Positions 19,480 through 29,003 of a stretch of 64,000 nucleotides of DNA are shown here, in pieces; positions within the stretch are counted from its first letter, which is position 1, and each line of letters starts with the position of its first letter. The stretch comes from an uncultured Mobiluncus sp. (GTDB taxonomy: Bacteria; Actinomycetota; Actinomycetes; Actinomycetales; Actinomycetaceae): the NCBI RefSeq assembly GCF_943914685.1, contig NZ_CALUCZ010000008.1:4109-68108 (forward strand), read 5' to 3'. Position numbers and translations under genes: made by a program. A model generated the notes under the pieces. That model did not search any database. It saw only the letters and a list, made by a program, of their open reading frames with translations, and had not been told where the DNA came from.

Positions 19480-19548
19480 AATACCGCAGAGCCGGGCCTG
19501 GCGGGGGCTTTAGTGACAACTGTACTCCCTGCTCTATCCCGTAGCCAG

Positions 19549-20715
19549 CTATCGCAAATCCGTTTCGTTTTCGGGGTTATTATCTAGCTTTTTGGCGGCT
19601 TCTGAAGCTTTGTCGAGGAGTATTGCATATCTTTTAGCGGCAGCATCGATGGTGGTTTTAATCTCCCTTATAAGATCTGGAGGTTTGAGAGCCACTATTG
19701 AGTCCGAATATTGCAAAATCCACCACTTCATAGCGGTCAGTTCCGCACGCACTCGCACCAGATAGGTGTCTTTCCGTTTCGTCGGCTCGACCTCAGCATT
19801 GGGAAATGTGCTAAAGACACTGTCGACATGGCCTTCCATGATGAGTTCAACGCCCTTTGCTTCGCCGCTATACATATAGGGTCGTTCTAGAGAATAATTC
19901 ATGAAGTCGAAGTCGCTGCCGTCCCAAGGTATTGCGCCTTCGGCGGGTTCGTTGATACTAATATTTGAAATGCGCTCAATGACCAGATTCAGTACGTTCT
20001 CTTCGTTGATACCGGGTTCGTTACTTGTCAAGAAATAGTAAACGCCCTTTTTGAAAATCAGTCCGTGTGGATACATATTCCGGTACGGCTTTGCGTTGTC
20101 CCAATCGTAGCCGCCTTTGATAGTGAAGTGGCTGTAGTCGAAATTGACGGTTTTATGTTCCGCAATAGCCTGTTCCAGGATTTCAACGGTTCGGCGCACG
20201 CCGGGAAGCAGATGGTCTTCGATGTGATTCACATAACCCTGTGAGAGTCGTTCCGGGCTGACATTTGCCATTAACGCCAGGTTGGTACGAAGTTCTTTGA
20301 GATCTTCAGGATCCAGCCGGGTAGCCAACAGCGCATCAGCCAGGAGACGCATATCTCCGGTTTTCAGAGGTCTTTGTGCGAACCACTCGGTGTCTTTCAC
20401 GCCCTCAGGGCGTAATTCATTTTCCAAGTCTCCAAATTGTTTGACGGTTACCCCAAAAGGGAGGGAACTTCCCAAATTGCGTAGGGCGCGCAGATGAGCC
20501 AGAGCCGTTTTTTCGGTTAGTTTCTGGGGTTTCAACCAGTCAATACCGTATCGCTTAGGCTCGTGGAACGCGGATTCAATCGTAGCTGCGCTGACTCCGT
20601 GTTCAAGAGTGGTTTTCTCCAGCAAGTAGCGGAAGATGAGGAAACTAATATCGCGGCGAGGTCCCGTTGTGTCGCGGGCAGTACGGAGCTTGGAACTTGT
20701 TTTGGTTGCGGTCAC
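19549..20715 (-). CDS. WYL-domain transcriptional regulator (wHTH-WYL-WCX architecture; BrxR/CapW-like).
   Basis: 388 aa. N-terminal wHTH ('DISFLIFRYLLEKTTLEHGVSAATIESAF'). Central WYL-like block ('YPHGLIFKKGVYYFLTS'). C-terminal WCX-like block ('YLVRVRAELTAMKWWILQYSDSIVALKPPDLIREI'). Divergent from the island operon. Confidence 0.6.
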   Translation of the reverse strand: MTATKTSSKLRTARDTTGPRRDISFLIFRYLLEKTTLEHGVSAATIESAFHEPKRYGIDWLKPQKLTEKTALAHLRALRNLGSSLPFGVTVKQFGDLENELRPEGVKDTEWFAQRPLKTGDMRLLADALLATRLDPEDLKELRTNLALMANVSPERLSQGYVNHIEDHLLPGVRRTVEILEQAIAEHKTVNFDYSHFTIKGGYDWDNAKPYRNMYPHGLIFKKGVYYFLTSNEPGINEENVLNLVIERISNISINEPAEGAIPWDGSDFDFMNYSLERPYMYSGEAKGVELIMEGHVDSVFSTFPNAEVEPTKRKDTYLVRVRAELTAMKWWILQYSDSIVALKPPDLIREIKTTIDAAAKRYAILLDKASEAAKKLDNNPENETDLR

Positions 20716-20728
20716 AGCGTTTTCCTTT

Positions 20729-20748
20729 GGGGGCAGTAGTTTTCTACT
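20729..20748. promoter_or_regulatory. Perfect palindrome GGCAGTAG-TTTT-CTACTGCC in the divergent promoter between the WYL regulator and the AAA+ ATPase gene; candidate operator.
   Basis: 8-bp arms with a 4-bp spacer, 15 bp upstream of the WYL start and about 65 bp upstream of the ATPase start. BrxR/CapW-type regulators bind inverted repeats in their own promoters. Confidence 0.4.
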
Positions 20749-20813
20749 GCCTTATTTTAGGCTTCTTTAGAATCGAATTGTTCGTTTCTAGTCAAACCGA
20801 AAAGGGAAAATGA

Positions 20814-27102: not shown

Positions 27103-27180
27103 CCACTTTCTCACCAGTTCATGGTTTTTAAGTACCTGTAAGCGAGAACCATACCGACCAGTGAATGATAGGATTATGCC

Positions 27181-28026
27181 GTGTGTAACTTTCCTGACCT
27201 TAACTGTTTTCTATTAAAACCCGACCTTTCTCACAAAGCTGGAGTCGAACACGTTGAGGCGTGGCTCAAGTACAAAGCAGGAACACTGATGGACAACGGG
27301 AAGAAAGTTACGGATCCCGATTGCTCCGATGCAGCCCGCGAGTTTTATACAATAATGTGGAGAGACTTTCTAAACGATACAGATTTTAAATTTCGTAAGG
27401 AACCAAGAGTTTTCAGCAAGAATCCGGAACAATACGTCCAGGGCGACTGGATGTGTTCCGTGGCCACTACTTTCGGAAAAGGATTAATCCGCTTTGTTAA
27501 AGGAAAACCATTGGAGAATTTATTTCCCAAAGGAAAAAAAGGAATTGATGTAGAACTCAAGACTTACGTTCCCATCCTTTTATGCGATATTGCATGCCCA
27601 TATAGCACAAAGCAATTTCAAGAGTTTTGGGGTGATCCTGTTTTGCAGAATTTTATCAGGTCTGCCTATACACTCGCAAACCTCATTATAGTGCCTGATG
27701 GTTTCAATCCAGCAAGATCTCGTCCCACTCAAGATTATTGGGATAGAACTTTAAAGAAGTACTATAAGAAGGAAGAACCCCTTAAATATAAAGGTAAAGA
27801 CGTCAGCACTCCATTCCACAAACTGGTCGAGAAAAGTCGAGCCAATGGCGGCGATGAGTTGTTTCTCGATGAATGGCTCGACAAGGATAACAATCCGATA
27901 CCGTTATTGGACAAAGAACTAAACACACCTAACAAACCTGATGACTGGCGCAAATTGATGGAGGAAATGACCAGGCGCATTGATAACAGGCGAGTGCAAA
28001 TGCAAGTGAGGATAACGAACTCATGA
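27181..28026 (+). CDS. Hypothetical protein (281 aa), the most AT-rich gene in the window.
   Basis: Clean ORF, Lys/Asp-rich, no recognised motif. The start is uncertain: GTG at 27181 or ATG at 27286. Confidence 0.45.
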   Translation: MCNFPDLNCFLLKPDLSHKAGVEHVEAWLKYKAGTLMDNGKKVTDPDCSDAAREFYTIMWRDFLNDTDFKFRKEPRVFSKNPEQYVQGDWMCSVATTFGKGLIRFVKGKPLENLFPKGKKGIDVELKTYVPILLCDIACPYSTKQFQEFWGDPVLQNFIRSAYTLANLIIVPDGFNPARSRPTQDYWDRTLKKYYKKEEPLKYKGKDVSTPFHKLVEKSRANGGDELFLDEWLDKDNNPIPLLDKELNTPNKPDDWRKLMEEMTRRIDNRRVQMQVRITNS

Positions 28027-28177
28027 AACAACAGCATTAGCCGCTCCAAGCTCTCCGGCATACCCGTTTAGCACTTTCCCAACCTGTCTTTTGCGCCCAT
28101 GCCCTCACGCAAAGGCAACCACAACGCCCTTGTGAAAAATTCGATTGCAAAATCAAGCAACCTTACGGAAGTGACAA

Positions 28178-28909
28178 ATGATATATGCACTCAGTGATAT
28201 ACACGGTTGTCTCGATGCTCTGGAAGACGCCTTGGCACGTATCGGGGATTTAGATGACATTCTGACGCCTGATTCCGATAATATGCTTATCTTCCTGGGC
28301 GATTACGTCGACGGTGGACCTGAGAGCGCATCTGTCTTATGCCGTATCCACGAGCTGCAACAACGCTATCCCGACAATGTCATCGTCCTCAAGGGAAACC
28401 ATGACGATTGGCTGCTGGATTTCCTCACCACCGATGAACCGCTATTTACCGTCACCTTCACTGAGGAAACCTTGTGCAGTTTCCTCCCCGCGTCCGTTAT
28501 CGACAGCTTTTCCGGAATCGGTTCCTTCGAGGTACTCCCAGCCATTCGAACCTATATTTTGGAGCACTATCCGTGGCTGGTGGGTTGGCTGCGTTCGCTG
28601 CCGCTCTATTTTAAGACGGAAACTCAGGTGTTCGTCCACGCCGGTATCGATGAGGACGCTGCGGAATGGTGGGAGTTGGGCACCAGCGAAGACGTGATGC
28701 TCAATAAGTACCCGCCCATGACCGGACCATTCCTCCTCGATGTTATTGCGGGTCATGTCGGCTCGGGGCAAGTGGCGGACGATCCGACTTTCCATGATGT
28801 GTTCTATGACGGATACTCGCACTACTTCATTGATGGCTCGGTGATACAATCTCAGCGGATTCCCGTTCTCACCTACGACACTGAGACAGGACAGTACGGT
28901 TCAATCTGA
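28178..28909 (+). CDS. Calcineurin-like metallophosphoesterase (PPP-family phosphatase / ApaH-like).
   Basis: 243 aa. Motifs 'DIHGC', 'GDYVDGGPES', 'GNHDDW'. Confidence 0.75.
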   Translation: MIYALSDIHGCLDALEDALARIGDLDDILTPDSDNMLIFLGDYVDGGPESASVLCRIHELQQRYPDNVIVLKGNHDDWLLDFLTTDEPLFTVTFTEETLCSFLPASVIDSFSGIGSFEVLPAIRTYILEHYPWLVGWLRSLPLYFKTETQVFVHAGIDEDAAEWWELGTSEDVMLNKYPPMTGPFLLDVIAGHVGSGQVADDPTFHDVFYDGYSHYFIDGSVIQSQRIPVLTYDTETGQYGSI

Positions 28910-29003
28910 GCAAACGGCTCATGGGCAGTCCGCGCTGTTGATTCAGCGCCTGCCGCGACGGTGGTATCTCCGATTCGCCGGATTGTCAGCCCTGCTCAAA
29001 ACA

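Follow-up and report, generated by a model that had tools for sequence, protein, structure and literature searches.

We analysed a 64-kb window of Mobiluncus DNA (the whole stretch examined, from contig NZ_CALUCZ010000008.1) that carries an island at 19490-29000, between pntB and sodA. As a preliminary description of this DNA had recognized, it is an accessory island with defence-type content, in which a WYL regulator is transcribed divergently from a co-directional gene string at 20814-28909. The string encodes a tandem AAA+ ATPase, a DUF6994-like protein (p277), a retron reverse transcriptase (RT) with a putative non-coding RNA (ncRNA) ahead of it, a small open reading frame (ORF; p71), a membrane-anchored protein (p263), a second DUF6994-like protein (p281) and a phosphoesterase. 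All the ORFs listed earlier exist, and the family assignments of the WYL, AAA+, RT and phosphoesterase proteins held. The description had further proposed that the whole string forms one new RT-based system with the AAA+ protein as partner of the RT; this was not supported, as the modules occur apart in other genomes. We are moderately confident that the island is a mosaic of separable modules, at least two in number, and not a single RT-centred system.

The GC content of the island was 0.504 versus 0.591 in the rest of the window, and none of 70 other 9.5-kb windows was as low (0.561-0.627). The minimum of 0.41-0.42 was found at 27.2-28.0 kb, as claimed before, and the AT-rich codon usage was likewise evident, the GC content at third codon positions being 0.44-0.61 in the island genes versus 0.75-0.81 in pntA, pntB and sodA; the flanks measured about 57-63% GC, rather than the 60-65% given earlier. 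Composition was also uneven within the island (GC 0.54 for the RT gene and 0.42 for p281). The left boundary is pntB (17900-19429; PNTB match 1.6e-187), followed by a terminator-like hairpin at 19438-19477 by Rfam hairpin alignment (stem 19460-19475 by terminator scan), and the right boundary is sodA (29060-29680, minus strand), with a terminator-like hairpin at 29004-29035 in the terminator scan. The gaps between the plus-strand genes ranged from 1 to 151 nt, the ncRNA excepted. In agreement with the preliminary description, family-model searches gave no integrase or transposase match among the island proteins. Island and flanks were about 96% identical in DNA between the window and a second Mobiluncus lineage (L087), p281 excepted. 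When an empty pntB-sodA site was sought through exact sodA matches, 20 of 20 contigs carried the island.

The RT (24914..26083, plus strand, 389 aa; RVT_1 5e-17) has a YCDD catalytic motif and belongs to the type III-A RT clade. Translation begins at the ATG at 24914, rather than at the GTG at 24905, in agreement with an identical database protein of 389 aa that NCBI lists under 'uncultured Mobiluncus sp.', and this start lies within the right arm of an inverted repeat. Among the 73 PADLOC RT models matched, the best was RT_III-A PDLC02944 (2.5e-102), and in NCBIfam the retron St85 RT was matched at 9.6e-46 versus 5.6e-12 for Drt2. The protein fell below the curated NCBIfam cut-offs of the DRT families (Drt2 45.5/390 bits, Drt3a 23/200, Drt4 14.5/450), with retron models scoring far higher. 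The dN/dS of 0.10 between the two Mobiluncus lineages showed that the RT is under purifying selection.

We retrieved 80 genome loci with relatives of the RT and clustered the neighbouring genes. At 57 of these loci a gene of about 400 aa was located directly upstream on the same strand, ending approximately 400-430 nt before the start of the RT match, and this family was PRTase_III-A PDLC02933 (1.9e-77 to 4e-118, PADLOC). The lineage is therefore that of the named type III-A retrons, with the order effector, ncRNA, RT. RT relatives at 31-43% identity displayed exactly this order, the PRTase_III-A gene being followed by about 200 nt of ncRNA and then by the RT. A PRTase was lacking beside the closest RTs, which were 51-54% identical and belong to Arcanobacterium hippocoleae, three Varibaculum genomes and one Logan contig; in the tree they formed with the island RT a long separate branch beside the PRTase-bearing actinobacterial RTs. 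In Varibaculum the closest RTs adjoin TetR and an ABC transporter, and in Varibaculum cambriense and the Logan contig an intact RT and ncRNA stand with no island-set genes within 10 kb. No neighbour was conserved throughout this subclade: WYL, p281 and phosphoesterase relatives were common to A. hippocoleae only, and Varibaculum had none of them. None of the 80 loci carried the AAA+ protein, p277, p71 or p263.

The island itself has no PRTase. Its proteins did not match the PADLOC PRTase, even at E 10 for p277, p71, p263, p281 and the phosphoesterase, and the PRTase hidden Markov model (HMM) found nothing in any frame of the 64-kb window. Two candidates for a diverged PRTase, p277 and the N-terminal region of the AAA+ protein, were ruled out by comparison with it (hhalign probability 0.3% for p277; 0.6% against the PRTase profile for the AAA+ region). 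Thus, the RT falls by HMM in a named retron clade, but since the PRTase, the defining effector, is absent, the locus is better not classified among the type III-A retrons, and the earlier idea of an unnamed RT system is only partly undone by this assignment.

The putative retron ncRNA (msr-msd) occupies 185 nt at 24750..24934 on the plus strand and folds into a long closing stem, formed by inverted-repeat arms at approximately 24750-24770 and 24913-24934, with four internal hairpins. The structured, repeat-bounded region noted earlier upstream of the RT was thus confirmed (fold z -5.0 versus shuffled sequence). The block was conserved across Mobiluncus, A. hippocoleae and Varibaculum; the consensus had 61 pairs, 96% of cells were paired, and 8 pairs showed compensatory changes versus 0-4 in slid controls. 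No Rfam family, including retron msr, matched the ncRNA, the matches in the region being a tRNA-Ser and sub-threshold noise on terminators. A covariance model built without the Varibaculum vaginae locus matched only that locus and the window, and detected no canonical type III-A ncRNAs, a result that is non-diagnostic, as the sequences may have diverged too far. The region fits a retron msr-msd, and since the RT is under purifying selection and the structure of the ncRNA is conserved, the retron probably still makes multicopy single-stranded DNA (msDNA). In V. vaginae (L027) the orthologous RT, a probable pseudogene, is split into two ORFs (10022-10465 and 10693-11226), while its ncRNA block has stayed well conserved (182 bits with the covariance model).

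Two small genes follow the RT closely. The 71-aa p71 (26094..26309, plus strand), of uncertain coding status, starts 10 nt past the RT stop codon; it matched no family and had no homologue among the fetched loci, and in the second Mobiluncus lineage it was 86% identical with an indel (dN/dS 0.49). The lineage-specific, 263-aa p263 (26311..27102, plus strand), starting 1 nt past the p71 stop codon, has an N-terminal membrane anchor (hydrophobic segment at residues 12-34) and a dN/dS of 0.19, with no homologue in 262 fetched loci, phage records or IMG/VR. The FG-GAP-like label previously given to p263 was not established, because the match is only at E 0.036. Given their tight coupling, p71 and p263 may belong to the retron module, p263 being a candidate retron partner by position.

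The AAA+ protein (20814..23729, plus strand, 971 aa) consists of an N-terminal domain of about 420 aa followed by two modules in which an AAA core precedes AAA_lid_6, that is, the architecture of the CbbX/SpoVK/EccA type present twice. Both modules carry Walker A (GTGKT) and Walker B (DEAY) motifs. In family-model searches they were most similar to CbbX, SpoVK and EccA (NCBIfam matches of 2e-124, 6e-103 and 9e-97, all under the equivalog cut-offs), and the PDB matches were CbbX (1e-39) and EccA1 (4e-33); the N-terminal 420 aa had no Pfam or PDB match. Among the known AAA+ defence systems in PADLOC (IetAS, DolB, TRIP13 and PDC-M37) we found no strong ATPase match and no matched partner proteins, the best matches being DolB at 1.5e-13 over 70 residues and IetA at 9e-13, confined to the AAA core. 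In the literature, we found no paper coupling 'CbbX' with 'anti-phage', and nothing that ties DUF6994 or a CbbX/SpoVK-type ATPase to any named defence system, except for a SpoVK-like add-on in CoCoNuT loci. The earlier remark that a CbbX/SpoVK-type AAA+ partner is not known for any retron or DRT type described so far was therefore upheld.

Close relatives of p277 (23770..24603, plus strand, 277 aa) formed only two clusters among 5.8 billion proteins, one of them from Arcanobacterium sp. S3PF19. There, the WYL gene is again divergent from the AAA+ gene, and p277 again follows the AAA+ gene (71%, 73% and 53% identity to the island for WYL, AAA+ and p277, respectively). This cassette is flanked by tsaD and an abhydrolase/holB/tmk/topA block, i.e. 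it is located at a different chromosomal site, and the locus has no RT, phosphoesterase or p281. Given this RT-less copy and the absence of AAA+ and p277 from the RT loci, WYL, AAA+ and p277 together make up a self-contained cassette, the chromosomal site of which has changed. The AAA+ protein is thus not the partner of the RT, and it is not a housekeeping ATPase either, but part of its own mobile cassette.

The WYL/WCX-domain regulator (19549..20715, minus strand, 388 aa), divergent from the AAA+ gene, matched PADLOC WYL PDLC01652 at 1.3e-18, and in Pfam it fell slightly short of the cut-offs for both WYL (21.0 bits, cut-off 21.8) and WCX (23.0 bits, cut-off 23.9). No N-terminal helix-turn-helix was detected by HMM, and there was no PDB match by sequence. 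Its dN/dS against the second Mobiluncus lineage was 0.14. The 98-nt divergent promoter region contains a palindrome, CAGTAGTTTTCTACTG, at 20734..20749, which was found once in the 64-kb window and is identical in Mobiluncus and Arcanobacterium sp. S3PF19, although the adjoining proteins are merely 71-73% identical. We regard it as the putative operator to which the WYL protein would bind; WYL regulators of defence islands are documented (PMC9122601, PMC11662680).

The two DUF6994-like proteins, p277 and p281 (27181..28026, plus strand, 281 aa), did not directly match the DUF6994 (PF22507) model. An exhaustive HMMER search with p277 gave 62 remote relatives, and of 39 aligned relatives 7 matched Pfam DUF6994; D92, N169 and D188 are invariant. 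The p281 family comprises approximately 75 clusters, and all members with a named source are from Actinomycetaceae genera. The two families matched each other in profile-profile comparison (probability 93%, E 3e-7 over 205 columns) and in direct HMM searches, so that p277 and p281 are distant paralogues. The AlphaFold models were confident (pLDDT 91.3 for p277 and 88.8 for p281), and the predicted fold of both is closest to the type IV restriction enzyme BrxU (PDB 7p9k), the alignment covering 113-129 of 580 residues and only the nuclease-like part. The p281 model also matched a DUF262-domain protein of the DndBCDE-DndI system, the C-terminal domain of SspE and Cas9 HNH domains; DUF262 itself was not matched in any island protein (Pfam). 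According to the Pfam authors, DUF6994 has an HNH/type IV restriction-like ββα fold, with a replacement at the catalytic histidine and with two invariant aspartates (PMC11701544). Both proteins are predicted nucleases, p277 with an HNH/ββα, BrxU C-terminal-like fold.

Between the two Mobiluncus lineages p281 was only 68% identical in protein, with a dS of 0.31 and a dN/dS of 0.67. Where the window (27100-27860) is aligned with L087 (10001-10867), the DNA identity of 69-83% at p281 is the sole drop against about 96%, a pattern that points to allele replacement or diversifying selection at one gene. Relatives of p281 were also found alone. In a prophage of Arcanobacterium pinnipediorum (CP099547; L088 10001-10810) one stands on the opposite strand between the portal and large terminase genes, a moron-like position, i.e. 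that of an accessory gene inserted in a prophage; no p281 homologues were found in phage records or IMG/VR. Other solitary p281 relatives occur in a Varibaculum hotspot, with AbiE and restriction genes of type III or type ISP as neighbours. The Varibaculum-type contigs L089/L090 and L263-L265 represent this one hotspot (DUF3021/LytTR, RelB, AbiEi/AbiEii and ImuB/DnaE2), and since the place upstream of the p281-family gene is taken by a type ISP restriction enzyme or by a type III restriction-modification system, the hotspot exchanges defence cassettes.

The last gene of the string encodes a PPP/ApaH/NinI-like metallophosphoesterase (28178..28909, plus strand, 243 aa; Metallophos 1.5e-14), with further matches to ApaH (1.5e-12) and the PHROG NinI-like Ser/Thr phosphatase (3.7e-24). 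It keeps all the catalytic motifs (DIHG, GDYVD, GNHD and GH). In A. hippocoleae a 71% identical phosphoesterase is located beside relatives of the WYL protein (34%) and p281 (41%) and the RT, all within 5 kb. Between the phosphoesterase and the retron ncRNA of that genome (CP136412) there is also a 198-aa ORF (L001 9093-9689, minus strand) with an above cut-off Tubulin/FtsZ GTPase match (9e-16), which may be a truncated TubZ/FtsZ-like gene inside the island.

Relatives of the phosphoesterase occurred in similar company in distant metagenomic loci. L099 (39% GC) contains one operon with WYL-like and DUF6994-like genes, a 56-aa ORF, the phosphoesterase (41% identical) and a second Metallophos gene. 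In L106 (JGI contig Ga0099364_10000004, 5076-15655; 53% GC) a co-directional set between nusB and xseA has the order CbbX-type AAA+ (a single module with AAA_lid_6), 200-aa ORF, Metallophos, DUF6994 (473 aa, above the Pfam cut-off), Metallophos, a Schlafen/AlbA_2 protein (Schlafen/AlbA_2-HATPase_c_4-winged helix-turn-helix) and a 733-aa WYL-DUF6994-like fusion. The phosphoesterase is paired with DUF6994-like genes in L109 and L113 and with WYL genes in L107, L108, L111, L115 and the IMG/VR contig L183. No RT was present in any of these loci. The sample is small and was gathered by similarity; even so, a chance association of such rare families seems unlikely. Thus, WYL, CbbX-type AAA+, DUF6994-like nuclease and NinI/ApaH-like phosphoesterase genes co-occur without an RT. 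Models for this AAA+ protein, p277, p281 and the phosphoesterase are all absent from PADLOC v2. The operons in L107, L108, L109, L111 and L183 are of low GC (35-36%) and probably (pro)phage; the first gene encodes a 401-411-aa WYL protein, two to four tandem Metallophos genes stand at the end, and a second WYL-domain protein and a KOW-containing protein lie between.

The possibility exists that the retron swapped its PRTase for the DUF6994-nuclease/phosphoesterase set, in which case msDNA-RT would restrain p277 or p281 and/or the phosphoesterase, with the AAA+ protein optional, and the locus would represent a new Actinomycetaceae type. Retron effectors are known to be modular (PMC7736814), and Mobiluncus and A. 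hippocoleae, the two genomes in which this RT subclade has non-housekeeping neighbours, share the WYL protein, the p281-family nuclease and the phosphoesterase (71%), all within 5 kb though in a rearranged order; in each, the effector slot immediately ahead of the ncRNA is occupied by one gene of the set. Furthermore, one Varibaculum RT that lacks such neighbours (L027) is broken. However, V. cambriense and the Logan contig retain an intact RT and ncRNA with none of the set within 10 kb, and the DUF6994/Metallophos/WYL set occurs without an RT at no fewer than five other loci. The argument from co-location is also weakened because only two genera of one family are concerned, for which shared island ancestry is a sufficient explanation. 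We consider such an adoption unlikely, but leave it some weight because of the absence of internal terminators, the single operator, the conservation of the whole island and the co-location in A. hippocoleae.

We therefore return to the mosaic, which we would divide as follows. Module A (19549-24603) would comprise the WYL/WCX repressor, its palindromic operator, the tandem AAA+ protein and p277. The WYL protein would hold the operon off until an infection or DNA-damage cue is sensed, upon which the AAA+ ring would act as a nucleoside triphosphate (NTP)-driven motor for the HNH-like nuclease; in this way module A would be a split counterpart of type IV restriction enzymes such as GmrSD/BrxU or McrBC, and its effect would be to restrict the infection or abort it. 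Module B (24750-26083, possibly to 27102) would be a retron descended from type III-A that has lost its PRTase/winged-helix effector, the positional candidates for its present effector being p277, which occupies the slot that is normally the PRTase's, and the tightly coupled p71/p263. Module C (27181-28909) would consist of the fast-evolving, DUF6994-like p281 followed by the NinI/ApaH-like phosphoesterase. The protein families, the folds and the genomic context suggest a defence function and the cooperation of the ATPase with the nuclease.

Several findings weigh against this division. The comparison has a small sample, namely a single copy of module A that lacks an RT, and a few metagenomic loci. 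The terminator scan gave no convincing intrinsic terminator between the closely spaced plus-strand genes, which may be co-transcribed and could cooperate, and one operator alone, CAGTAGTTTTCTACTG, heads the whole string. Both Mobiluncus lineages, which are about 0.1 apart in dS, retain the entire island undisrupted, and it is subject to purifying selection. In A. hippocoleae the RT is located beside the WYL, p281 and phosphoesterase relatives despite a rearranged order and the absence of AAA+ and p277, and this could mean a functional link between the retron and that set. Moreover, because PADLOC convincingly matched only the RT and the WYL regulator, with no convincing defence model for any other island protein, the predicted defence role of modules A and C derives from context and fold.

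The same features would suit the original proposal that the whole string at 20814-28909 is one new retron-like system under the WYL protein, in which the AAA+ and other proteins act with the RT and msDNA: the genes are co-directional and tightly spaced without internal terminators, the sole WYL operator is at the head, the island is kept as a unit in both Mobiluncus lineages, and p277 is in the slot held by the PRTase effector in canonical type III-A loci. We nevertheless consider it very unlikely, since the AAA+/p277/WYL cassette occurs without the RT, the RT clade occurs without AAA+ or p277 at every other locus examined, p281 relatives stand alone elsewhere, and the distant WYL/AAA+/DUF6994/Metallophos clusters have no RT. 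The genes are therefore co-conserved only in part, and an RT plus AAA+ system is not supported as a headline claim.

It is also conceivable that the island is not immune in function, but old, fixed foreign DNA whose genes do other work. Its products would then be a chaperone ATPase of the EccA/SpoVK kind, a surface protein and a NinI-like protein phosphatase derived from a prophage, besides an orphan retron with an unknown role or none at all. In age the island equals the split between the two Mobiluncus lineages, and all 20 contigs with the same sodA contain it; it has no integrase, the AAA+ protein is nearest to SpoVK, CbbX and EccA, and the phosphoesterase has relatives on predicted (pro)phage contigs in addition to its PHROG NinI-like phosphatase match; some retron clades, too, have no associated effector (PMC7736814). 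Against this stand the nuclease-like fold matches of p277 and p281 to type IV restriction enzymes, the p281 relatives in restriction-modification/AbiE hotspots, the fact that the string is headed by a WYL regulator whose putative operator is conserved, the fast evolution of p281 and the presence of module A at a different chromosomal site in another genus. Accordingly, we regard a non-immune island as very improbable.

A bolder combination of these elements, which we put forward as distinctly doubtful though a little less so than the last two alternatives, is that the island holds a new Actinomycetaceae retron type in which a type III-A-derived RT-msDNA uses a BrxU-like DUF6994 nuclease in place of the PRTase, with an optional CbbX-type AAA+ drive and a WYL sensor; the phosphoesterase might then act on nucleotide or 2'-5'-branched products. 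Independently, WYL, AAA+, DUF6994 and phosphoesterase would make up an unnamed, phylum-spanning defence system.

Outside the island, a segment of about 1.3 kb at 30249-31535 (approximately 48-50% GC), beside tRNA-Ser(GGA) (29863-29948), is absent from the second Mobiluncus lineage (L087). It contains small ORFs, among them an overlapping two (30968-31219 and 31212-31505) that have a toxin-antitoxin-like look, with no convincing Pfam match for the pair.

The effector-less offshoot of type III-A and the unnamed recurrent gene set are both real and testable. The former illustrates how the effector that defines a retron lineage can be lost, with the retron coming to lie among other immune-type genes, and provides a natural test case for effector exchange. 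The latter is a small set (WYL, CbbX/SpoVK-type AAA+, BrxU-like-fold DUF6994 nuclease and NinI/ApaH-like phosphoesterase) that recurs in distant bacteria and is not in PADLOC v2; if it is a defence system, DUF6994 would gain a function and a new class of AAA+ proteins would join the restriction theme of NTPase plus nuclease. Phage defence has hardly been studied in Mobiluncus and its relatives, which are Actinomycetaceae of the vagina and gut.

When compared with known systems, module B resembles the type III-A retrons (Mestre et al. 2020, PMC7736814; e.g. Retron-Eco11, type III-A3, PMC12746101) in its RT clade, in the gene order around the ncRNA and in the structured ncRNA with inverted-repeat closure, located directly upstream of the RT and overlapping its start. 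It differs from them in that neither the island nor the 64-kb window has a PRTase-like or winged-helix effector, the effector slot being filled by an unrelated DUF6994-like protein. The regulator has in common with the BrxR/CapW-type regulators (winged helix-turn-helix-WYL-WCX; PMC9122601, PMC11662680) the predicted WYL and WCX domains, the divergent placement at the head of a defence-like operon and a conserved palindrome in the shared promoter region, whereas its sequence similarity to them is low (no PDB match, Pfam scores slightly under the cut-offs) and its operator is a predicted one.

Each ATPase module matches the CbbX (Rubisco activase), SpoVK and EccA families, but the island protein differs from these in its tandem modules, its unique 420-aa N-terminal domain, its sub-equivalog scores and its accessory, WYL-regulated context. 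Module A belongs to neither GmrSD/BrxU nor McrBC, although these come closest to it as working analogues. With GmrSD/BrxU (7p9k) and the SspE/DndI DUF1524-type nucleases it would share the logic of an NTPase plus an HNH-like nuclease, the NTPase gene adjoining p277. The fusion of an N-terminal DUF262 NTPase with a C-terminal DUF1524 nuclease that defines GmrSD/BrxU is, however, not seen in the island proteins: DUF262 is absent, the part of the NTPase would fall to a separately encoded tandem AAA+ protein of the CbbX/SpoVK clade, and DUF6994 has two invariant aspartates instead of the catalytic histidine (PMC11701544). Compared with McrBC, the island AAA+ protein is of another clade (CbbX/SpoVK with AAA_lid_6, tandem and presumably ATP-using), and the predicted nuclease fold is ββα/HNH-like versus PD-(D/E)xK; the likeness to McrBC is that of a two-gene, restriction-like cassette in which an AAA+ motor is encoded beside a putative nuclease.

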